64,000 nucleotides of DNA from Balanoglossus misakiensis (taxonomy: Eukaryota > Animalia > Hemichordata): positions 10,441,846 through 10,505,845 of the forward strand of contig CM082577.2 of assembly GCA_040954595.2 (NCBI GenBank), in the 5' to 3' direction. Every line of letters starts with the position of its first letter. Positions within the stretch are counted from its first letter, which is position 1. Below are positions 28,901 through 61,900 of the stretch, one piece after another. Under the pieces are notes generated by a model, which made no database searches, was not told where the DNA came from, and saw only the letters and a program-made list of their open reading frames with translations. The position numbers were made by a program, and so were the translations under genes.

Positions 28901-31900
28901 CCAGACAATTTCTCCAGTTCCTTTGGTGTCCGGTTTAGACAGGTTTCACTGTATATGATTATGATGTATGATGTAGAGATTGTCATCATTTTAATCATTG
29001 TGTCAAAAATGATTACTATTTAGTACACATACATGTATATACTTTTGTTCTTTTGATAATTGCAACATCCGAACCGTCTACTGAGAAAATTCTTATAACC
29101 ATCTCTTTTTGTCTTAACCCCACATCACCTTCCCCCATCCTCTTCCCCCCCCCCCCTCTCAATTCCCCTCCATCCCGCAGGTACGATTTACCAGAGTATT
29201 ACAAGCCTTCGTCCGCCCTGGAACACGAGTGGATATGTAGCCTGCCCAGCGACCCCGGAATGCTGCGATGCGGCGACACCTCTCTGCCGCGCATCCCCTA
29301 CACGATAGGAAACCTCATATGCAATGAAACTGTGGAGCCTAATATGAATTATACCTTGACGGGGACAAACATCAGCTCCTGTGTCAACTGGAACTTGTAT
29401 TACACCGAATGCCGCACGAGCGATTACAATCCTTTCATGGGCGCAATCAACTTTGATAATATTTTGTATGCCTGGGTGGCCATTTTTCAGGTAAAGCACT
29501 ATAGAATTCAGAGAAAACAATAACTTCACAAAAGTAACTTCACGTCATTGCATGGTAGACTTCAAGAGTCAAAAAAAAAGATGACAATTTCTTGATTCAT
29601 TGCCAGAACACAAATTCGTATTCATTCATGATCAGACTGACGTCAACAATCCGTTGAAATCATTTCTGCTGATATCAGCTTCCATTTTTCACAGTCATCT
29701 CAGTCATTGATTTTATTCATCATCAGAAAGTTGAATATTCAATGAGCAACTCTCAACCAAACAAAATTGAATTTCACAACAATAATTAACACACATGTAT
29801 AACACACAAATCTGGAGCATGCACAATTTGGCTATACAGCAACAAATATCTTCTTGTTTCAAAAATATTCTATAAATTTCTATTTTTTCATATCTTGTAT
29901 TTATAAACACACCGTCATAAATGAAATCTCTTCAAGCTCTTTTATCTATTCAGTCACATTAATTCATTATATATTCATACAAAATTTTGCTCTGCATGTT
30001 TTCAGATTTTGTTTCTGTCACATTAAATTACTTCTTCCGTCTTCTCATCACGATCTCCATCCCCCATCTCTCTCTCTCTACATCCCTTTTTATCTCGTTC
30101 TCTCTCTCTCTCTTTTTTTTGCTCTTCTTTATCACATTTCAATTTTTCAGGTTATAAGTTTAGAAAGCTGGGTTGAAATGATGTACTACTTACAGGACAC
30201 CCACTCATTTTGGGACTGGGTTTATTTTGTTACACTTATTGTTGTAAGTACCTCTTTCTACGCGTGCCCCCCTTACCGGAGGGGGGTGGGACGCGACACA
30301 CACACAACACACACGCGTCACATCTGTTGCGTTACACCTGGCTGTCAATGTGCACCTGGCTGTTACCCGGCACTCTGCTCCTTTACTGCTAGCTACTGCT
30401 TCTTCTCTCCCTCCCGCCCGACGGTAGTTTACCGCCATTTTCAGTAATCTGCATGTTAGTGAAGTCACTGTGTAGTCTGTTTCCCGTTTTGTAGGTTATA
30501 TCCCTTGAAGGCTGGGTTAACATCATGTATTTTATGCAAGACGGCCATTCCTTTTGGACGTGGATATATTTTGTGGTTTTGATTACTGTAAGTATTCGTG
30601 GACCCCCCCTATAATATAGCTCTGTCGTGGTGAGCAGTCTTTCTATATAACCTGTCGTTTTGTGGCTTTTTTGTGTGTTTCTGTGGATGTCGACTAACAC
30701 AACATCCCCCCCTGCCCCCCAAAACCAGTTACGAACCTAATTAATCTGGTGTTGCTGTAATAACACTAACGTGTCTCGTACCTGTGCCCAGGTGGACGAT
30801 TAGCACCCACTTTAACTGTGTAGAAACACATTGCTTACGTACCCCCTACAAGGTGCCGAGTTTACTCACCGTAAAAAAAATGGATGTGTTCCGACGCACA
30901 TTGTGGACACTATGAGCCAAAATATACAATCAGTCTTTTACAAAAGCCTTGCTGTGATAATGTGTGTACTCTTCTGCCTGTTCAATTGCTGATTCCATAC
31001 TAAGATATCAATTTGAAATATGCATTTTTGTCCTACTGTGATTTGCGTTTTTGTTTGAACTTTTAATTCCATGAGCCACCCGGGTGGCATTACCGTATCT
31101 TGTCGTAGAAACGAGAAATACACCCCTGATTTTGCCGCTAATTCTCTTCCCTTCTGTTTGCAGATTGGTGCCTTTTTCATGATCAATTTATGTTTAGTTG
31201 TCATAGCGACACAATTCTCAGAGACGAAGCAGCGCGAGAGCAAACTGATGAAGGAGCAGCGTAGGCGACTGCAGAGCTCCACGAGTACTTTGACGAGTTC
31301 GTCGGAGCCCGGCGGATGCTACGACGAGATTCTGAAATACCTGGCGCACCTGGTTCGCAGGGCCCGGCGGCGGATTGGACGCTTGCTGAAGCGGGTCCAG
31401 GGGCGGCGACAGCGGAAGGTCACGCCCGCCATCTCCCTGCGCAAGAAGCGGCGGAGATCCAACAAGTCGGTGCACCTGCACCACCACCACTACCACCACC
31501 ACCACCACCACTATCACTACGGCAACGGCAGCCCCCGGGCGCCGCGGGCCAGCCCGGAGATCAGCGACATCGGCTCCTCGCCCACCCGGCCCAACCGCCT
31601 GGTGCTGCCCTCCGTCAACAACAGCCTGAACCCCAGCAGCGAGTCGCTGCACTCCATCACCTACTGCACCGAGGCGGTCTCCAAGATCGACTCGGTGCTG
31701 CCCAGGATCCCCAGTCGCCGGGCTTCCCCGCACGCCATAGTCACCACCACCGCCACCATCTCCATCCACCGCGCCTCCTCCGTAAACTACCCCACCACCA
31801 GCTCCAAGGACACTAACGAGGCGCTGGCGGTCGCCAACACGAAAGCCGACCCCAAGCTGAACAACCTCTCGGATCTGTCGCCCAATCGGCTGACAGACAG

Positions 31901-37900: not shown

Positions 37901-40900
37901 AAAATGTGACCATATTGTGACTATAATTTTATTAAACTTTTTTGTATCTTTTCTCTCTTTCCAACAGCATTCTGGGAATGCATCTCTTCGGGTGTAAATT
38001 TTGTGAATATCTAAATGATGAAGAGAAGATCTGTGATCGAAAGAATTTTGATTCGTTGCTCTGGGCTATCGTGACAGTGTTCCAAGTAGGTGCCACAAAT
38101 GTGAAGTTCATGTCTCCCGTCAACAAAACTGTTCCCTTGGCTGTGTCCGTGTTATTCGTGGATTTCATTTCTTCCAATTATTAAATGGGGTTATTGCCTT
38201 CTGTAAAAGACTTTACTCCAGTGCCTGTGGTTATGACCGCTAATAACTCGTCCCATTGCTGTTAATGACATTGCTTTATATAAATGCCATGAAATTTTGT
38301 TGTCGCTTTTGCAGTGTGGCAGAGAAATTTGCTTTTTATTGTGTGCATGTGGTTGCTTGGATTTCAAAATTGCTGGTTTCAGCCACCCTAGTTCTGGAAA
38401 TGAATGACTTAATTGGGTCAAAGACTTTAAAGGGGCAAAAACGTTTTCTGAAGCATCAAATTTTCAATGTACATGCATGTCGGTTCTTCTGGCATTAAGG
38501 TGTATCATTCATGTTTCTGATCCAATTTTGAACTTTGTGGGAAAACAGTGACATTTATACAGTGATGGAATTTTCAGTTTGTTTTGTGATTCAATCCAAT
38601 ATGGCCACCAGTCGGCCATCTTAAAATGTCTGCAGGGGTGTACAGGTGCACATAAGTACATTCATTTTGCATCAGTCCAAAATGATGTCTTTTGAAATCC
38701 ACGCAAGGACTACATCATTCACAATCATTGTCTTCATGCGTCCTACACACTCGCGACATCCAGGTTCCCCATATCATTCATCTGGACTGTCACACCAAAG
38801 ATCACTCACTGTTTTACAGATGATGATGATAATGCCAACGTCATGTCATGTGGAGTATTTTTTTTACTGTCTCCACGGCCTCCTGAAGTCGAGAAATGAA
38901 ACGGGCAGCCATAAAAACTTTGTGATTAACTTTTAATGTTCTTGAATTGCAGATTCTAACGCAGGAAGATTGGAACATCGTGCTGTATAACGGCATGTCG
39001 AAGACATCCTCCTGGGCGGCGTTGTACTTTATCGCATTAATGACCTTTGGAAATTACGTGCTGTTTAATTTACTGGTGGCCATCTTGGTCGAGGGCTTCT
39101 CGTCGGAGGTGAGTCGTCTGATATGCAAGCAAACGCCAGGAAACGTTTGTCACGGTTGCCTTGATATTACCCACTTTGCAGACATCATTACCGACATTAA
39201 ATTCGACGCCAGGGATAATTAAAAGATGACTCACTTTCTGCAGACAATGTTTTTTCCCCCCGAAGTCAGGGGGAGACAACAAGGCTAGTACATTTGCTGG
39301 AGTCATATTTTATGGATAATTTGTTTTAAGCGATCAGTGTTTGGTACCTTAGTATGAAATATTGAATTTTGTCATTTTGAACAAAGATGTCTAAAACTCA
39401 CTGTAATATCTCTGGCAAGTGCAAACATTTCCATGCCTCTTGGTTTTTGTTATTTTTCAATCATTATGAACCTCGTGTAAAGGTTAATTGTTGGTAAACC
39501 GATCTCCGGGCTGTTTTGACTTTAAAATATTACAAAAATGCCATTTCATAACCTTGTCTCTACTCTTTAAACTCTCTTTCTCCCCCAAAATTGAGGAAGT
39601 GATTAGTTTCAGGGGCAGAGTTGTCTAATCCATTATTGTCACAGAAAATCTGAATGAACAATTTAAATCATCACTTTCTGGTATTCTGGTGGTGAAGTTT
39701 ACCTTTGGGCTGATTTCAGCTGCAAAAAAATACTCATTTTGACAGGTCTGTCGGATTGAACTGAGCACGTCCAGATCAACTTTTTCCTTCACATATTGTA
39801 CATTTCCCGGTGATCTCGGTCAGTTCTGATCTGTAATGACATGTTTTTCATTCACACCATTGTTTGCATGCACCGAAAACCAAAACCAATACTATCTACT
39901 TTTTTCTCTCTTTTTTCCTGTATCTCCATACACTCTACCACCACAAACTATGTATATATATATTTCTTATGTATATATATATATATATATACCCCTCCTT
40001 TTCTACCCCATCCACTCACGATGTTCACATTATTACATTTGGCTGCATGTGCTACGTTGTAAATATGCTTGGTAAGTACCACTCATCATCTCTTTCAGAT
40101 GTTTTTAAACTTTTTTTCCTTTACAGTTTTTTTTCTTTCATCTTAAATGTTACTTACAGCTTGGTGTGTTTTGAAGTATCTGTGTTGTATATTACCCTTT
40201 GTGACTGCATACATTTGCTTCTTGTGCCTAAAGTTGCCATTCGTGATGTTTATTAGTCCCCGCTGGGCAAAGTCCAAAAGGGGCTTAGAGCTTCTGTCTG
40301 TCCGTCTGTCTGTCTGTCTGTCTTGGCCACAAATGTTTCTTTATTAGTGAAAGCTGGCACAGAAAGCAGTGATCTTAGATCTGTGATGCACTGGTAATTT
40401 TTACCATCAACAGTGGACAACTGAGTATCTCTTTTCAAATATATCGAAATCAAAAATACATTTATCTTCAGTTGAATACACAGACTAGTTTACTAGGTCC
40501 TCACCAGGCATTTGTATTCTTGATATCGCCATAATTTATGATCATCCTGATATTCATGTGAAATTTTTTTTCTCACAAATCTTCACAAGACTTGGATATG
40601 TAGCCTTTGTCATTGGCTTGCTGGGTGTTGTATTTCATGTGGCATCCATTTTGTTGTACGTAATATGCCATTTTATGTTTGGCAACCAATATGCAGTTCA
40701 CACTTCAATGTGTTTTTGCCACTCCCCTGCTCTGTGAAGATTTTTTAACTGCTTTATGGAAACTATATCATCAACATTGATTGTGTTTTTTGCATTTTGT
40801 GTGATTTGTCATACGGCTTCTACATGTATCTTGCGATTTTTTTCTCTCAATATTCTTAACAGTGTGTGTCTCACAATTTGTGTGTTTTTGCCTACGCTCT

Positions 40901-43900
40901 GTCATTAATGGTAAAAGACTTGAATGCATAATTTTTTTGCTGTTTATGCTTAATAACCGAAATACGACACAGGCAATCCGCCGAATACGTCATCTAAACG
41001 TGTCTCCCTCTTTCAGGACGAAAAAAAGAAAGACGTAGATGCGGAGAGTTCCGACGACAGCTCCGAAGACGGCTCGCAGAAAAACAACAACTCGAAAGAC
41101 GCAAAGTTAGTAGAAGACGGGTCCCTGGATGAAGGTTGGTTTATATTTTGTGTGGTCTCCTATCATTTATACCAGTGACTTTATGTGTTAATGATATTTT
41201 AATTGCTGTATGCCTTGTCATGCAGTGAAACACTGTGTAGCATTTATTGCCGTGAGAAATATGTCGGACCGCGGTCATCGGTAATTGTGACAGTTCGATG
41301 TCTTTTCTGAACTTGTTCGTTTGATGTTATTACACAGTAAAAAAATTAAAGCTCACTTCTAAATCTTTTCTGAACTTGTTCGTTTGATGTTATTACACAG
41401 TAAAAAAATTAAAGCTCAGTTCTAAATCTTTTCTGAACTTGTTCGTTTGATGTTATTACGCTAGTAAAAATTTAAAGCGCAGTTTGGTAGCTGATATAGA
41501 ACTCGGTTTGACATTCATTGGTGATGTGAACATGGGGCTGGGAGCTCGCAAAAGTTCTTACACTCGGTTTGACCTAATTGTGGTGAGGGGTTAAAGATAG
41601 GGCAGCTGGGGTGTTACTGTCTCCACCCTACATGAAATTGGAGTTTATGATTTGAAGTTCTTGAGTGATGCTGCACAGTTGTGAATGTGTCTAGGACAGA
41701 CACCCCCTGGGCATTTGCCCACCAGACACTCACCCGAACCATCTCCCTAACCCTGTGCGCTAACTGGTGGATGGGAAATGGTTGGGTGTCCCGTTACAGA
41801 TCACCACACATTTTTAATCATCACACTAGCGCAGAAATATCAAATTGAGTATATATGAATCTTTAATTACCCCAGAAATTATTGCAGAGAGAAAAATGGT
41901 AGAAAATGGGTTTGACAGTGGTACATGTAGTAGGTATTATGATAGTGGTAGGTATGATGTTTGAAATAATAATCAGGACAAACATGACTGTGGCAGAGAG
42001 GGCCAGCTGTCATCTCAGATAGGTTTGGCATAATCTTTGGTAGAGCAGTGGCTATAGCCAGCAGATAGGCATCTGCTTGTCATCTGCACCGCCAAGGGCC
42101 AGAGATGCAGAAACAGCCGCAGGTGCTCTGTAACGTCTCAGACACGGTGTGTAGTAGGAGCCTATTCATTGCACCCAATGTTGCCTGTTTTTCTAGAAGG
42201 GAAGACGGCAGCTGACAGCAGCGATCCACACAGTTCTCACAGAGCGTATCACGGCAGTCATTTACGTGGCCCTCCTATCATTACTCATACAGCGGCCACT
42301 CCTCAGGGTTCGCCCAATGCAGACAACCCTAGTAGTAAGAGTAGCGCCCGGCACAACCACGACGCCACGCTGTTCGATTCCGACAGTAGATCAGTGGTGA
42401 GTACAAGTGTATGTGTGTTTTCCGCACTCTTAGTAAAACTGAGGCATTATTCACTTGTGTTTGGTGGGACATTTTAAAACAAAAATATGGTGCTTTGTTA
42501 TATTTTATGAAGAAAATTTTTTTTTGTCAAATAACTTTTAAATTGTCATTGCCTGTCATCTTTGAAGTTTAATCCTTCCACCCCCATTTCCACAATGCAT
42601 GGGTCCAAATACTTCATTGAAAATATTGAATTGACCCAAAAAGTAACAAAAAGAAGGATGTACAATGTATTTATTATTACCACAAGTTCAAAATTACAAG
42701 AAAACAGCCTTCATGGATTTGATGTACACATAAATGTGACCTGATAATTCTAATTTTGCTTCCGATAGTCCACGCTTAGTATTCGTGCATCGCCGCAGTT
42801 GCGCCGAAGGGGAAGTCGCAGTAGTGACTCGAGCTTTGCTGACAACAGCAATGGAAGACATTCCGAAAATGGCAGAGAGCGCAGGCCAATCAGACAACAC
42901 AACAGTCATCACAAGAAGAGGAGGTAGGTATACAGTGAAAATGTCTAAAATGGAACCCTGTCTAATCTTGAAACCTGTCTATACTGATCACATTTTCCAT
43001 TGCCTTGCTCATAAAACCACATGTTAAAAGAACCTATAGTATTAACTGGAAACCTTTGCAAATCGAACTTACATAGTAAACAGGGTTTACTAAAAAGTTA
43101 CTTGAAAAAATGGAAGAAAGAAACCACATGCTCTGTCTGTATTTATCAAGATTTTGTTTGTGTTATTTAATAAACAGACCTTCCATCGATAATAGAGAAG
43201 AGTCATCTGACAACAGCAACCTAGCGGCACCGGCCATGTCCGCGGAAAGCAGACGAGCGTCGTTCGCCTCCTGCAATGGGGGCTCGGTCACCGCCAGCAC
43301 CTGCAACGGCAAACGACCGTCCATCTGCAGCCAGACGCCCGACGACGACGACAAAACCGACGTCCACAAAGTCCCGTCGGTCGAGGTGGTTGAAGACGCA
43401 GACGCCAAAGACGAAGTGGTAAGCAGACCTAATTTGAATATGTCTGCATCTGTTTATGTTAAGCGGTTAAATTTAAATATGCAAATTACCGTACCCGAAT
43501 TAACACTTTTTTTCGCTTCTGTATTATTTAGGACGTGTGTGCATATAACATGTATGGCTATTTTATTTTAGATGTGTATAGAGGTTGTTCCTGGTGTGGT
43601 ATTTTTTTCCACGATAGAGTCGTTGATTTTTTCTAGAATTTATCATACCATATAGTATAGACAAAAATAGGACCCTTATTTGCCCTAAATGGAAAGTTAG
43701 TCCACATCTCCCTATGGGTCGACTGTTGATTTTTTGTTGTTTTCTTGTTTCATATAAAAACAGAAAAATATTTTCTGTGCACTTTAGTATGATGATAACT
43801 GCACACACCACCACCCGTATAAATATAATGCAACTCTCTTAGCTTGCACATTGAAAAATCATAAATGCCTGGTCTGTGTCGATCGAGTCAACTTCCGTCT

Positions 43901-49900: not shown

Positions 49901-52900
49901 TTTAGGTCAAAATTGAAAAATGTGACCCAGTCTGCTCAAAATAGAAATTCAACCTCAACCCATCCTTTTATAACTTCCTGAATTGGGACTTTTAATTGAA
50001 CTTTGACCTTGCGCTTGTCTCTCTGACCTTTGACCTTGTCTTGCAGTTGTTCAAGGGTAAGTTCCACTACTGCAAAGGCTACGACGTCAGACATATCAAG
50101 AACAAAACGCAGTGTCTAGATGACCCTGATAACCAGTGGTTGAACCAGCGCTACAACTTCGATAATCTGGGACAGGTAAACAAATCGGGCTTTGATATTT
50201 AATTATATATGGACATCATGTACACATGTAAACAAATGAAACTGATAAACGGTTTAGAAATTTTGTATTTTGATTAAACCTTTATTTTGAGAGCGTGTTC
50301 ATAAAAAATAAAACAGTTAAAAACAGACCAAGAAAAAAATCTTTCCAGACACAATAAAAACCTTTATCATGATTACAGTAAACAGTTAGTCTAAAAACAG
50401 TCAGAAAATGTTTTGCGCCAAAAGATGCTGTTCCTATTACATCCAAAGATTTAAAAGTTGCTTTGATCAAGTCTTTCTGGAATGAGATGTCCGATTGAGT
50501 GATGTCACAAACTAAGATCTGACCTATGTGTATATGTCAACTCCTTGTCAGTGTCTGTATTTTCACCACACTGACACCCTCCGCAGTCACCAGTGTGCTG
50601 TTCGATTTTGAAGTATTTCACTGATTATATCGAGAACCTAAGAACTGAAGACAGGTTTATGTGTTTCCTTCTCTAGGCTCTGATGGCACTGTTTGTGTTG
50701 GCATCCAAAGATGGCTGGGTGGAGATCATGTACAATGGTTTAGATGCTGTTGGAATAGACCTTCAGGTTAGTTGTCCATACTTTGAACTCTGACCCCCCT
50801 CCTGGTGACCTATGACATCATGGCGACACTACATTTGACCAGGCTTTAAAGGGTGAAGGCAGTAATGGACAGCTATTATCCTTACCCAAGTTGAAATATT
50901 TTGTATGTGGCATTTAGTGCATTTGGTGTATAGCAATATATACTCCTTCCCTCCCCAAAAGGCTAATAAATAACTTTCATTGATGTGAATAACTGAGAAT
51001 TGAATATTTCTTACATGGGATGGCCTAATGAAAATTTGATCTCATGTGACAGTGCATTGAAGGCTAATTCACAGAGAGACATGTCTATGGCAAGAGTTAT
51101 GCTGATGAAGATAATTGTTAAAAAAATTTGTTCCTTTGAAAGACATTTGACATATTCTCTTGCCTTGTGAATTTTGCATCCACTTGATTTCATTGTGAAT
51201 TTCTTTTATTTGAATGCACCAATTAAAACATTTCTTTTATATGAATGCACCAATTAAAACGTTTCTTTTATTTGAATCCACCAATTTAAACATTTCTTTT
51301 ATTTGAATCCACCAATTAAAACGTGCCTTTCTTCCCTCTTTTCCTCCAACAGCCAATCAGAAACTACAACGAGTGGTTAATCCTTTACTTCATCTCATTC
51401 CTTCTGATCGTGGGGTTCTTCGTGCTGAACATGTTCGTGGGCGTGGTGGTGGAAAACTTCCACAAGTGCCGGGAAGAGCAGGCGGCGGAGGAGATGAGAC
51501 GGAAGATGGAGAAGCGGCAGCGCAAACTGGAAAAGGCCAGACAGAGTATGGCAGCTGAGCTTTCTAACGGTTCGCCCGGTCGGTAATGGTGGTGCTGTTT
51601 TGCTACTTGATATACATTGCAAGGCTCTGCCCCGATCAAAAGATTTTTCAGTTATCAGAAACTGTTGTTTATTAAAATTTCGGCATCCGAAACGGAACAA
51701 GATAAACGACACGCAGGATGAAAAAAACAAAACCCCGGGAATCCAAGAAGACTTGCAATGTATCATGTGTGGTCTAGTTCACAGAAAGCTCGCACAGTTT
51801 AATGCATGAAAAAATAACGATGAAAGAAAAGCTATAGACGTTAAAATGCATGAGACTTTGCTGTGGCATTTCTGGAATAACTTATCTAGCTTCTTAATTA
51901 GTTTGTGCCACTGATTGCAATAATAACTGTAAATTCCCTTTAAATAAATTCACTTTAAAACACCCCTTAACTTTTAATGCCATCTTTTTAATGCCCATTT
52001 CCTATTCTCATTGTTTATATTGATCTCTTCATGATCAAATACAAAGAGCTTTGTTGGAGATGAGAAATTATTAATGGTATATATTTTTCTTCTATAAACC
52101 GTGTATGCCATATTGGCTCAGTTATATATGTCTTTCTTCCTTGACTTTCGCCTTTAATTTATGTTACTCAGTCTTGACCCTGTAAACAAACAACTCTGTA
52201 AACAAATAAAAACATTTCTTGCATCATTTCTTGACTTTCTCCTTGAAATTAATGTTTTTCCAAAGTGAAGGTAGCATGCTCAAAATTGACCACAATCAGA
52301 GCCCCGTCATTTGTTTTTGTTAGTTGGTAGATATTTGAAATAATGCAAGCGCAGAGTTTTGGGGGACATTTTGAATATTGCATTTTGGGAAATTTGAGAT
52401 AATTTTATTTCTCTAATTCAAATTTGGTCAGGGACCTTTCAGAATATTTCGTTTGTTTTGAGCACTTCAAAAAGAGGCAGCTCTTGTGAAAAATTCCAGG
52501 AAACCTTATGCTTGCTTTTCCCAGAAAGAACCCTCTTTAATAGAAACAGGGCTGCTTATCACATCTCCTTAGCGCTTGTCATTTGGGTTGTAGGGTTTCT
52601 TGTCACTTTTTGCTGGGATGCGTCACATACAAATTGCTAGTTGCTACTAACACAGGGTTGATAAAACAGTCCTTACTGGTGTAAGCATGCTTTTCTGCAA
52701 ATGCAATAAAGTGTTCATAACTGTCTTGAATTCATACTAAAAATTATGTGGAAAAAAATAACCAATTGCCTGCTTAGGAATGTCGGTGCGTAGATAACAT
52801 GCATTGGTGTTGTTGGTAAAGTCACATCGAATTGTTAAACACATTAACATAATTAACACTCAAAGGTTCATCTCCCAGCATGCTTTGTGACTCCCGGCAT

Positions 52901-55900: not shown

Positions 55901-58900
55901 GAATGTAATCTGATGTTTATGGCTGAAAGGGAATTTGTAAAAAAGGGCGTTGACCCCGCCAGCCGCTTTCCAAACGCTTGACGTCCAACACTGCCCTCTA
56001 TAGATCAGCCGGAGCGGAGCCCGTACCTTACACTGTACAGTTATCCTTTGAGTATTGCAATAAAACATGAACTAGAATCATTAAGCGTCACAGCTTACTA
56101 AACATGATAAGGTGATTTGTATGTTGACATTTTGCTCTCACCAGGTGGAACCAGTTAGATATGTTAATTGTAGTGCTCTCGATACTCGGCATAGTTCTAG
56201 AAGAGCTGGCAGGGTCCGAACTCCCCATCAATCCGACCATCATTAGGGTTATGAGGGTTCTTAGGATAGCAAGAGGTAAGTTCTTTTGTGTCATTGTGCC
56301 ATGTACATATCTATGTGCACTAGATTCATGTGCACATGTTTGGACATACATGTAGCTATGAACACATACTGGCCTTCACATGACATGAAAATATTTAATG
56401 TACATGCGGTCAGATTTTAAGCCTACCTGTAGATACATGTTACACACTTTGATATCTATATGTACACATGATTGAACATCATATCTGTACATCATACAAT
56501 ACTTTGATATACTCAAATACAATACTTCACAAACAAGAACTATCTATGTACACATAATTGAATACACATTGATATGAATGTATGTACCTGTTTTGAAACA
56601 CTTGTTTGATTCTTGAACATATTTATGTGCTACATGAACATGATATAGTTTGGGTAGTCTGATGCATGCAACATGCTTTCATGTTTTTGTGGGATGTTAT
56701 AAACAGTAGAAAACTGAACATATTTACAGATGTGCATGTTTCTTTTAGAGAGTTGGCCATGAGACGAAAATCGGCTGTCTGATCAAAGACAGCTTATTTT
56801 AAAATCTCATACCCAGCTCTCTCTCATTGAAACAGACTCACCAACAAAAGCAAAGTTAAAGTAAACATAGCTTCTATTTTTGATACTAGAAGTGCTGTGT
56901 TGAATTCTTTTGCAGATTGGTAGTTTTTCAATGCATGATACGAATATATACTAACCTTAGAACTTTTTTCAGCGATGGCTGTTGCACATGAAAATGCTCT
57001 TCTGCTTTTATACATCAAAAGTTTTTGACCATACAAACATTCTCAGAAACCACTCACATCAATTACACAACAGACTACGTGTTTACAAACAAACATTTTG
57101 CACAAAAATTGAGTGATCGTGATTGGTTTCATTTTTTTTTTCAAACAATCATTTAAAAAAAATAATTTTTGTTTTTTAAAAACCTGTGTTTCAAAAAATC
57201 AGATGAAAAAAAAATTGTTTTTGTTATCTTTGTACAGATAAGTGTCTAATGATGATTTGTTTGGCAGACTTTGACAATTCGAAAACAAAATTATTGGAAA
57301 AAACATTGAACCAAACTGAATATGAAGCATGTCGTGATTATGCATGTTTTTTTTAATTATTTCAGTGAAGAGTGTGGGCTTTTAGTTTGTTTGTTTTTCT
57401 ATGCAATGAAATTCTACGTTTTAACATGTTTATTTTTACAACTTTATTTTTCATTTTATTTTCTCCAAGTATGATTTCTGGGTGCATTATCCATACCAAT
57501 GAAACTAACACCAATATACAACAACACCCTATCCCCATTCTCCTCTGGCACATTTATTCTCAGAACCTTTTTACACTAGACACAAGTAATCTATGCACTT
57601 TTATTTCAATGATGTCAACACTGTGCTGGGTGTATCCTCTTTTCATCGGACACCTCGTAAACTGTTCTAATTCTTCTTCTGTGACATATTACTCTCTCCT
57701 TCTACATTGCTTACACCACCTCGGGGCAGTCTTAAAACTGATGCGGACAATGACAGGCTTACGGTCACTGCTAAGTGTTCTCATGATAGCAATACCAGAG
57801 GTAACATTGCCAACGTCTGCATGCTGTCGTCAACCAGTGGTGACATCGCTCTCTCCTCTCGAACCCCCGGTCGTCAGGAAACGAGAGAGAAAGGGAGAGC
57901 GAGAGCGAGAAACAGTAGCATTCATAATACAGAGATGCAGCGTGGAGCGCGTGCGTGCGTGCGTCTGGTCGGAGATGTTCTCAGAAATTCGACCCCCCCC
58001 CCCCAAAAAAAAAAAAAAAAAAAAAAAAAAATTATCGGCAATTCAGAGTTTTCTGGGCAATAGACAAAAAAGAATAATTTTGCACGCAAGTAGTCCAGAA
58101 CAGTTGGGCTTGTTAATGCCAAAATTTTGCAAATCACGTCAGACGACACGGCGCGTACGACACGCTGCGTCTCGCGACACAACCGATAGGCCTTGCTTAT
58201 TACAGTCACCTCTCATCCATTAGCACCCGCTCACAAAAACCTCCTGGCTAACCACCACCACCACCACCAACCACCACTGCCACACCAACCGTCGTGCTTG
58301 GGGAAAGCTGTATGTTTGATGTTTGTCCCTGATTTTACTTCTTCCCCCCTTTTTAGTTCTCAAGTTGCTGAAAATGGCCAAGGGTATTCGTCAGCTCCTT
58401 GATACGGTCCTTCAGGCTTTGCCACAGGTAAAATCTCAGACACATCAACCACCAAACAAAAAAATATAGGAACAAACAAAAAGAAGTTATAAGGGCAGAA
58501 ATACCACCGAGAGTGGAGGAATTGATGTCCCCGTCATCAGTTTAATCATTGCTTTTGGAAATTGGTTGTGAGAGTGTGTGTGAGAGTGAGATCATCATCA
58601 TTACCATCATCACCATCATCATCTATAGTGTAAAGTTAAACTGCTATGTAGACATCTTCTAGAGCGCCCACATAGCCATCGTCCTACCCTTACTGAATAA
58701 GACTGATGCGAAACCAGGAAAATTCCACAAAAGTAGGAAAAAAAATGTCTGTGCGCTTTCTGGTGAAGGGAACTTGCGGCTTCCTCGTCCTTTACGAGAT
58801 TATTACTCAGAAATAAAAACAAAGGCAAAAAAACTTGAACAAAATTTGAAAAAAAATGTGTGCTGTCTGGTGGAGGGAACGTGCCTCTTTCTCTGTCCGT

Positions 58901-61900
58901 CTTTATCTTCCTTCATCTCATTTGGTGAAATTCGTCCTAAATATCGCCTTCATCATCGTGTGCTTGTGATCATTCTGTGACGTGGCTGCTCTCATCAGAT
59001 ATTTCCAGATGAATTTGATGCATTCATGGTCATTTTTACATTTTATTTATCGTTTGGAGGGTCACAAAATTCAATTAGATACTCGGGGCATTTACCCAGT
59101 CGCTGTACGTCCTATCCTCTCCAAAATCACCAGCCAAATTTTTCTAAAAAAAGACCCCTTTTTTGCATTTTTTTCCACCAAGTGATAATTTTGCTGAGTA
59201 AGAGATTTATTGAGTCTGTGACACCGTCGCTTATAAAGCATCTACTTCTTCAGTTTTGCTTAGAATTAGAGAGGCACTCATTTGCTTGTTAGATTTTTAG
59301 ATACCCTCGTAGAATCACTGTCACTATAGTATCGCTTGGTGCTTTTTTTTGGTCACGTCATCTTTTTGACAGGTAAAATTGTCGCAGAAACAGATTTGAA
59401 TTTTTGATAGGAAATGTTGCTTTCCTTTGTTGCCATGTGAACTAACTGTGCATCTTGCCTTTTGTTCGCCGTGTTAGGTTGGAAATCTGGGGCTGTTGTT
59501 TTTCCTTTTGTTCTTCATATTTGCTGCCTTAGGGGTGGAGCTGTTCGGAAGGCTCGGTGAGTAGCTTGACTTTATGACCTTTGACTCCCCGCAGCAAGTG
59601 CCCTTTGACCCATGACCTCAGCAACAGGTAGTGTCACACTAGTGAACTTCAATTATAACATACTGGTACTCTTGGACTTGTCAGGAGAAATACGCAAGGT
59701 AAAACTCACTGATGAGTTTTGGCAGAACTGCTCGAAATAACTTTCTAAAGCTCATGTTTACTAATCTTTGATGTTTCGTTGTGTGGGGTGTGTTGACATT
59801 TTTCTCTCTATTTTTCCTCCCGTGCAGATTGCACAGACAGTAATCCGTGTGCAGGCTTGGGAAGACATGCCTCATTCCGTAATTTTGGCATGGCGTTCCT
59901 GACTCTGTTTCGGATTTCTACTGGTGACAACTGGAACGGGATCATGAAGGTATACTCTGCCGTGCTTTTGTTTTTTCCTTTATAGTTTCTTCTTCTCTCA
60001 GGAATTCAAGAATTGTCGGTTGTAAGTGGTGTAATTACCGGCATGCATCAGGATTGTTGCTGTCGTCGTTTCCCCCCATCCAATAAAATCAATCAATTTT
60101 ATGCCCCTTTCAATTTTCAGGACACCTTGCGCACGGCGCCCATGTGCGACAATTCCTCCAACTGCGAGTACAACTGCTGCGCCAGCCCCATCCTCTCGCC
60201 CATCTACTTTGTGAGCTTCGTGCTGATGGCCCAGTTCGTGCTGGTCAACGTGGTTGTGGCCGTGCTGATGAAACACCTTGAGGAGTCGCACAAGATGGAC
60301 CAAGACGATGACGAGGAGGATCAGGAGATCGCCGCCGAGATCAAGAAGGAGATCGAGGAGGAGGAGGCTCGCAAGCGCAAAGAAGATGAGGTGGGTCAAG
60401 TTTTCTTTTTATTTGTTTTCTTACGAATAACTTGTGTTATAGTTCACTTTGTTGTTTTAGCTAGCGTTTGACACGATCAAAAGTAGACGTCGTCCAAACT
60501 GTGAATGTTGTATTGTGGAGCAAAAGAAACTGTACACCGGTATCGCCCCGCCCTAATTTTATCCAATCCAAAATTGTATTAATTGATTATAACCCATCTC
60601 TCTCTCCTTACTGTCTTTACTCAACCAGAACACTTCATTTGTTGTCTGTCACTGTGTGTAACAGTAACATTTGCTGTTTCCTCACGCACTGTCATGTTGT
60701 GTCCTCTTCTCCCCTGCCAGCATTAACCAACACAAAACCCATATAATAACATGTACAACTTTATAAGATGTTAGTAAAGCTTTGGACAGGCACTGACGTA
60801 GCATTACGGGGCTGTGATTGGTTATTGGCCATAGGTGTCATAAAGACCTGAATGGAATTGACCAATCAGAACTGCACTACCATAAACTTGCTCTTACCGC
60901 AGACTCCCTAGTTCACTCACTTGGTGTAACGTTCTCCTGAGACAAATCCACTACCTCAGCACTTCATGCTTTAGTTGTTTTACTCATCGATGTCCATTTA
61001 TGTTTTGCCTTTTTTATTAAATTTACCATCATTTTTCTACAACCCATCCCATCATTTTTCTACAACTCATCCCATGATCTTCTCAGGAACTGGGACCAAC
61101 ATGTGGTCTGCTGCAGGTATTTATTTACTTCTGCTTGCCTGTTTAATTTTACTACATAGCTTTTTTTTGTTGTCATGCTCTCTTTCTAATGTCCATCACC
61201 TTTTAAGCATGTGCAATATGCAAAACATCATCATGAATATGCAAAAAACAAACATAAATATGCAAATCACTATGATGATCAATCCCCCTGTGGCCATCCT
61301 CGCAACTGAATGTGTATTTTTAGGATTTCCACACCACCACCAAATTTGTTAGCATTGACCCCACTCCATCTTTTGTTCTATTTAATTGTGTAGAATTTAG
61401 AGTACAAGTACAAGGCACGAGTTTGAATTAAAAAATTCAGCAAGTTTTAACCAACTTGTATTTTATTATTTTTATGTACAATTTTGTCAGATGACTGATT
61501 CATACTGTAATTCTGTAATCCAAGAAAAACTCAAACATGAGTTAAATGTGAAGGTAAAATTTTTACCTCAAATCTCAAGAAGGTAAAATATTGACACAAA
61601 AACAATTTTGTGTGACCTTACTTACTTACTTTACTACAAAATTTCATTTTTTTATTCACCACAGAATTTTTGCTTGTCAAAATTCTTATTTTGTCTCGTT
61701 GCCTATGGATACAGTAATCTCTTTGAACTCAAGTTTCAATTTTGTAATTCTCCGATCACATTTGCTGTGCAAAGAACTGGAGGTGTTCTCAACTGTCTAT
61801 TCTCAAAATCGTTACTGTCCATTCAATATCAAAGTGCGACTCTGCTGAGCTGTTGTTGCCGATTTTCTCCACATTGCCATGGCAACCTGTCGTCAGATGT

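Follow-up and report, generated by a model that had tools for sequence, protein, structure and literature searches.

A gene for a T-type calcium channel alpha-1 subunit (Cav3) occupies much of a 64,000-nucleotide (nt) stretch of the hemichordate Balanoglossus misakiensis (contig CM082577.2, positions 10,441,846 to 10,505,845 of the forward strand), which is called here the window. The end of the S4 helix and the S4-S5 linker of its domain IV are encoded by two neighbouring exons, A and B, which sequence comparison identifies as a real, old, strongly selected and mutually exclusive pair. On the combined evidence it is likely that the pair is conserved and mutually exclusive and that the divergent form, A, confers changed gating on the channel. 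The exons concerned are the following, with positions counted along the window.

56145 to 56275, plus strand: constitutive upstream exon (IVS3 and four S4 arginines), with a phase-1 donor
57730 to 57800, plus strand: exon A, the divergent one of the two alternatives, encoding the last part of IVS4 and the S4-S5 linker of domain IV (AG..GT limits, 71 nt, open in phase; 17/24 residues shared with the echinoderm A peptide; acceptor and donor weak)
58357 to 58427, plus strand: exon B, the canonical counterpart, encoding the segment that exon A encodes (18-22/24 residues shared with other Cav3 B forms; matches each of the four human Cav3 sequences of the PDB)
59478 to 59556, plus strand: constitutive downstream exon (IVS5), with a phase-0 acceptor

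Exons A and B are flanked alike, by a phase-1 intron before and a phase-0 intron after, with canonical AG and GT dinucleotides, and they share 10/24 residues and 31/71 nt. The splice limits, phases and alignment bear out the initial annotation, which had described two 71-nt exons of the same phases and of this identity. When the gene is spliced by coordinates, with 56145-56275 and 59478-59556 as neighbours, domain IV remains open over 311 amino acids with exon A alone or with exon B alone. Skipping of both exons leads to a stop at 59841, 108 nt short of the 3' end of that exon, and joining of both in tandem leads to a stop at 58369; the frame test agrees with the earlier claim that a functional mRNA must contain exactly one of the two. 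A premature stop far 5' of later junctions brings about decay of the mRNA, and since the stops produced by double or null inclusion are located far upstream of later junctions, such mRNAs are expected to be degraded. Exon A included alone introduces neither an in-frame stop nor a frameshift, so it is not a poison (stop-bearing) exon. The arrangement is that of tandem-duplicated mutually exclusive exons: adjacent homologues of equal length and phases, with canonical sites, of which exactly one keeps the frame. Scored against the echinoderm A peptide, exon A reaches 81 and exon B 65, and the next of the 136 open AG-71 nt-GT stretches on both strands reaches 7; among all six-frame 24-mers of the window (n=38,387) the three highest scores are 81, 65 and 35. 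The large gap between exons A and B and the next-best 71-nt stretch rules out a chance origin of the pair, and it appears very likely that A and B are a genuine exon pair.

Orthologues of exon A were found in echinoderms. From 289 proteins, 233 with the whole segment were retained; the other 56 were excluded as fragmentary or faultily modelled. An A-type segment is present in 12 of the 55 echinoderm rows and in none of the 178 other rows: 9/11 models of Acanthaster planci, 1/12 of Patiria miniata, 1/12 full-length models of Lytechinus variegatus, and the sole Lytechinus pictus model that covers domain IV. The best 120 of 1133 matches to the domain IV exon did not include exon A, which turned up among the cluster members of echinoderm Cav3. 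RefSeq isoforms of equal length differ solely inside this exon, with 13-14 differences across 2304-2435 amino acids (A. planci X1/X2, 14 differences at 1838-1856 of 2435; P. miniata X1/X2, 14; L. variegatus X1/X3, 13). Each form stands alone in the gene models of three echinoderm species, these being models and not reads of the window species, and no echinoderm model contains both A and B. The A/B isoforms are computed RefSeq models; RefSeq builds such variants from aligned transcripts. The initial annotation had allowed that A might prove a duplicate without conservation. Its orthologue is used in echinoderm isoform models, and exon A is therefore not a decayed copy.

The echinoderm A peptide is identical (24/24) across four species of sea stars and sea urchins, two lineages that separated about 450-480 million years ago. 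Between sea star and urchin the B peptide shares 18-20/24 residues, the upstream exon 34/43 and the downstream flank 26/26. The echinoderm A peptide shares 17/24 residues with window A and 12/24 with window B. Columns 5, 7, 8, 11, 17, 18 and 22 are common to window A and echinoderm A and have the same residues in none of the 21 distinct B forms nor in window B, and at columns 16 and 20 both A forms differ from every B form. In a tree the A rows group at 98/88 (13 rows, three identical A rows left out; 24 columns, bootstrap not settled). Searched with a profile, 1.84 billion representatives yielded 172 matches, and among the 150 listed there is at least one further A exon (P0297, 22/24, with intron-like flanks). 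Exon A scores a mean BLOSUM of 57-60 with domain IV linkers and 19-35 with those of domains I-III. A derivation from domain II, with whose linkers it shares up to 11/24 residues, was rejected, as domain IV scores far higher and the phases fit exon B. It was also observed that the B forms of sea stars (P0163, P0167, P0124, P0169) have drifted from the near-universal Cav3 sequence, with 18/24 residues shared with window B, while their A is invariant; there are hints that, in sea stars, some of the ancestral role passed to A.

The pair probably goes back to the ancestor of echinoderms and hemichordates, and one duplication in the ambulacrarian ancestor, which lived in the Cambrian or earlier, would be the simplest reading. 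Independent duplications in the two phyla with later convergence of the sequences are extremely improbable in view of the seven shared derived residues, the same exon limits and the grouping of the A rows in the tree, even though the alignment has just 24 columns. Outside echinoderms the rows compared are mostly arthropods and nematodes, with few from molluscs, annelids and amphioxus, so the absence of A from them says little. A metagenome scan with A patterns gave 346 pattern matches, none confirmed, and a protein search with exon A plus its intron flanks (proteins of 71-2000 amino acids) gave nine candidates, none of which was scored. No second copy outside Ambulacraria was seen in any of the 80/80 metagenome loci kept (180 confirmed). 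In 77/80 of them the segment is continuous with the next coding exon, without an intron after it; running straight into that exon, it is not a free 71-nt module there. The 3/80 loci with the vertebrate-type motif have a 3' intron and one copy, with both introns whole in 1/3. As a separate observation, loci L049, L056-L059, L062-L065 and L067-L080 encode a Cav3 linker in which Ser replaces Gly10 and which, like window exon A, ends in Glu (position 24).

Which exon is chosen seems to depend on unequal splice sites. Ranked with matrices made from this gene, the exon A acceptor is placed 23/24 and its donor 21/24, and those of exon B 10 and 13, ranks that include two or three mis-snapped sites (47653, unverified, 54879 and 49855). 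The weak splice sites of exon A point to exon B as the default. The candidate control elements around the pair are:

57667 to 57671, plus strand: putative branch point 60 nt upstream of the exon A acceptor, in a 141-nt AG-free zone; no other branch-point-like motif occurs within 150 nt of that acceptor
57818 to 57823, plus strand: Rbfox-type hexamer, a weak lead, 18 nt 3' of the exon A donor; the gene contains 38 such hexamers
58230 to 58290, plus strand: YCAY-rich repeat 5' of exon B, possible Nova site or plain microsatellite; one of the two densest intronic YCAY clusters of the gene
58590 to 58625, plus strand: YCAY-rich repeat 3' of exon B, the other densest intronic YCAY cluster of the gene

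YCAY is a Nova motif and the hexamer an Rbfox motif. The 150 nt before exon B contain 11 YCAY, and those before 22 other acceptors 1-6; being simple repeats, the clusters are leads only. An Rbfox-type hexamer lies within 150 nt of 4/24 donors. The intron between A and B has 556 nt and the branch-like motifs of B are located 25-106 nt 5' of it, which speaks against steric exclusion. No intron RNA duplex that could serve as an exclusion device rose above background (best -15.8 to -19.8 kcal/mol; background -18.0 +/- 3.4), and a pairing across the A acceptor (57726-57743 with 58535-58552), also within background, was taken as chance. Exon B would then be the default and exon A the regulated form, with splicing errors cleared by decay. 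Judged from the sequence, it is very likely that a single duplication took place in the ambulacrarian ancestor, that A is used in B. misakiensis, that B is the default and that double or null inclusion is cleared by nonsense-mediated decay.

The functional meaning of the swap must be sought in the residues that distinguish the two forms. Four S4 arginines are encoded in the constitutive upstream exon and A retains the basic residues at exon positions 3 and 6; the gating charge is hence the same in both forms, and the S4 positive-charge difference of the IS4A/IS4B exons of Drosophila cacophony is absent. The residue changes listed in the initial annotation are true of window A, but two of them, the loss of the linker Lys and the final Glu, are not general. 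Lys9 and Gln24 are both retained in echinoderm A, and B forms differ from one another at position 9, so these two changes do not define exon A. The changes that do are at positions 5, 7, 8, 11, 16, 17, 18, 20 and 22. Position 16 is acidic or amide in all B forms of the 233-protein set, and positions 16, 17 and 20 are small or apolar in A. The hydrophobic moment of the linker is 1.17 and 1.46 in the A forms, 2.21 in window B and 1.32-2.08 in 22 B forms. In a printed alignment Nav1.7 is apolar at positions 16-20, like exon A, and in the Nav1.5 row exon positions 12, 15 and 19 correspond to R1644, L1647 and M1651.

Splicing in of A would repack the hinge between S4 and linker (positions 5, 7, 8 and 11) and would exchange the polar or acidic residues at positions 16, 17 and 20 for small or apolar ones on one face of the linker. 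This face would be the one that meets the III-IV linker in Nav, and in Cav3 it would sit near the polybasic S6cyto helix. Mutagenesis in both channel families is the ground on which changed coupling of the fourth sensor is inferred. A Cav3.3 IVS4 chimera that included some linker residues shifted activation by +16 mV (PMC5825144), and the IVS4 substitution R1715H produced a positive activation shift (PMC7351805). S6cyto, nearest to the domain IV voltage-sensor domain (VSD-IV), supports low-voltage opening; its neutralisation perturbed VSD-IV most and shifted opening to positive voltages (PMC13377093, PMC9019099). In the Nav domain IV S4-S5 linker five natural substitutions cause persistent current (PMC5870949), and exon positions 12, 15 and 19 line up with three of these sites. 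By analogy with these channels, exon A probably alters the coupling of VSD-IV to the gate with no change in gating charge. The direction of the effect is the weakest step: activation at more positive voltages, with changed inactivation or recovery, is suggested by the same analogies, tentatively and with somewhat less than even chances.

A live and selected pair could instead affect a trait other than gating, such as surface expression, binding of lipids or partners, or modulation. The equal gating charges of A and B fit such a role, and cacophony IS4A/IS4B also controls localisation, a reviewer there having been less convinced by the voltage effect (PMC11828482). However, the nine fixed differences between A and B lie in a membrane-embedded core helix, and both Cav3 and Nav gate differently when IVS4 and its linker are changed, which makes a purely non-gating role unlikely. 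It is less probable still that A yields a non-conducting or dominant-negative subunit and that the splice choice is an on/off switch. Exon A does replace columns 5, 17 and 22, invariant across all B forms; against this, it is stop-free, 9/11 A. planci models contain it, as does the single L. pictus model that extends over domain IV, and its 24/24 conservation suggests a working fold.

Several observations weigh against a conserved A form with changed gating. The apolar shift is not confined to A, as the B form of Diadema overlaps echinoderm A in both hydropathy and moment, and A and B are alike at the Nav-mapped positions 12 and 15. In Cav3.3 a direct effect of the linker is shown for domain II alone (PMC5825144), and no passage on the domain IV S4-S5 linker was found in the accessible portions of the Cav3 structure papers, PMC9019099 included. 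The isoform evidence consists of computed RefSeq models whose transcript support is not visible. No A occurs in the 15 listed models of Strongylocentrotus purpuratus nor in those of Diadema or Holothuria, by annotation gap or by loss. Window A departs from the invariant echinoderm A at 7/24 positions and stands on a long branch (1.24), in a tree of 24 columns with unsettled bootstrap. These departures and this branch, together with the weak acceptor and donor, would suit an old orthologue fallen into rare use or decay in the lineage of the window. Such a decay is nevertheless very unlikely, for frame, length and splice dinucleotides are intact and the seven differences spare all seven diagnostic columns, most of them at positions where B forms vary as well. 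A working exon A with altered coupling remains the preferred reading.

Tandem mutually exclusive core exons are known from vertebrate Nav channels (5N/5A, 18N/18A), insect para (K/L) and Cav1.2 (8/8a, 21/22, 31/32), where they cover S2, S3, S3-S4 or S6, 18N being stop-bearing; to our knowledge none of them is a swap of the Cav3 domain IV linker. The closest parallel is perhaps cacophony, the Cav2 gene of Drosophila, where IS4A and IS4B are likewise equal-length mutually exclusive voltage-sensor exons of a single-copy invertebrate Cav gene, with a second exon pair elsewhere in the gene and a reported effect on activation voltage (PMC11828482). The cacophony exons encode 33 amino acids of S4 in domain I of a Cav2 channel and differ by one positive charge (PMC11828482), whereas the window pair encodes 24 amino acids of the S4 end and linker in domain IV of a Cav3 channel, with the basic positions unchanged. 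Protostome Cav3 exons 12a/12b are a described mutually exclusive pair that gives two channel types per gene; they differ in location (domain II's extracellular turret), in their unequal length and in setting Na/Ca selectivity (PMC4436565, PMC5379919, PMC10120453). The window pair, being in domain IV, is not of this type, which is marked by the domain II turret and its cysteine patterns. NALCN 15a/15b resembles it in that a core exon of a four-domain channel was duplicated and has been retained by echinoderms and hemichordates, but belongs to another channel family, swaps the selectivity filter and is also found in lophotrochozoans (PMC4436565, PMC6259924). In electric fish, the domain IV S4-S5 linker of Nav1.4 scn4ab1 was naturally remodelled following a duplication; there the whole gene was duplicated, the channel has the IFM particle that Cav3 lacks, and the residues concerned are mostly others (PMC5870949).

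The host gene was traced as follows.

16644 to 60390, plus strand: Cav3 alpha-1 gene, from domain I S1 to past IVS6 as traced, with both gene ends beyond the trace (tblastn of echinoderm Cav3; EEDD filter; best match Saccoglossus Cav3)

Four Cav3 proteins, echinoderm included, are collinear in tblastn along the window from 16644 to about 60390 and outline four homologous six-transmembrane repeats. The Ion_trans domain is present in both window exons tested and in four stretches of the echinoderm isoforms. The selectivity filter is EEDD, and the gene has the APRASPE motif in the I-II linker and the polybasic S6cyto after IIIS6, both described as marks of Cav3 (PMC3376122, PMC9019099). Among the best 120 of 1133 matches, the domain IV exon has Saccoglossus kowalevskii Cav3 at the top with 93% identity, the rest being at or below 78%. 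The Saccoglossus model differs from exon B, and the window gene is hemichordate-like yet distinct from that model. On these sequence features the gene is a Cav3 (T-type) alpha-1 subunit whose nearest relative is that of the hemichordate Saccoglossus. Exon A alone gave 0 matches in the PDB. Other observations were made along the gene. The domain II turret exon (exon 12, 37968-38085) was found in the window as a single copy, and there is accordingly no 12a/12b pair. The exon of IIIS6 is followed by tandem in-frame donors at 51545, 51569 and 51578: the first gives a short III-IV linker as in echinoderm models, and the other two add 8 or 11 amino acids, exon 25c-like. Echinoderm models have III-IV linker forms of 33-72 amino acids, and no further cassette exon was found in the III-IV linker intron of the window. 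Intronic tandem repeats of about 60 nt at 51198-51330 and 41292-41447 look ordinary.

A second duplicated exon, in domain I, encodes the filter glutamate, the P2 helix and the start of S6 (30151-30243 and 30495-30587). Two forms of this P2-S6 exon also appear in the isoform models of A. planci, P. miniata and L. variegatus, but identities of 17-22 of 31 resolve their pairing with the window forms only weakly. Models of three echinoderm species present 3/4 of the domain I by domain IV combinations per species; gene models do not phase exons about 27 kb apart, and these combinations are no proof of the free 2x2 combination proposed in the initial annotation.

PMC5379919 lists Cav3 splicing as 8b, 25c, 26 and the protostome-only 12a/12b. 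No paper describing the domain IV pair was found in a full-text search, the scope of which ended short of subscription papers and supplements such as a 76-channel alignment with hemichordates (PMC7382465). The pair thus sits at a Cav3 site without a described alternative exon in the literature searched, as the initial annotation had supposed, although its isoforms are already in RefSeq, uncommented. Core-exon splicing of Cav3 would be extended from the protostome-only 12a/12b to a second, independent solution in deuterostomes. Echinoderms and hemichordates are without Nav1 channels (PMC6259924), and T-type current has classically been studied in the starfish egg (cited in PMC5379919). A wider proposal is that exon A gives a single Cav3 gene a second, differently gated channel, its linker shifted at positions 16-20 to an apolar pattern like that of Nav, selected by Nova/Rbfox-type splicing in neurons or muscle, combined with the conserved domain I P2-S6 pair and standing in for a missing spike or pacemaker channel; this proposal is improbable. 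It is still an open question by what mechanism T-type channels, which lack an IFM particle, inactivate and open at low voltage; recent work points to VSD-IV and the III-IV linker (PMC13377093). The pair would provide two fixed versions of the linker that couples VSD-IV to the gate, at constant gating charge and by a natural swap of one exon. On the wider proposal, exon A would also be a natural probe of T-type channel inactivation.
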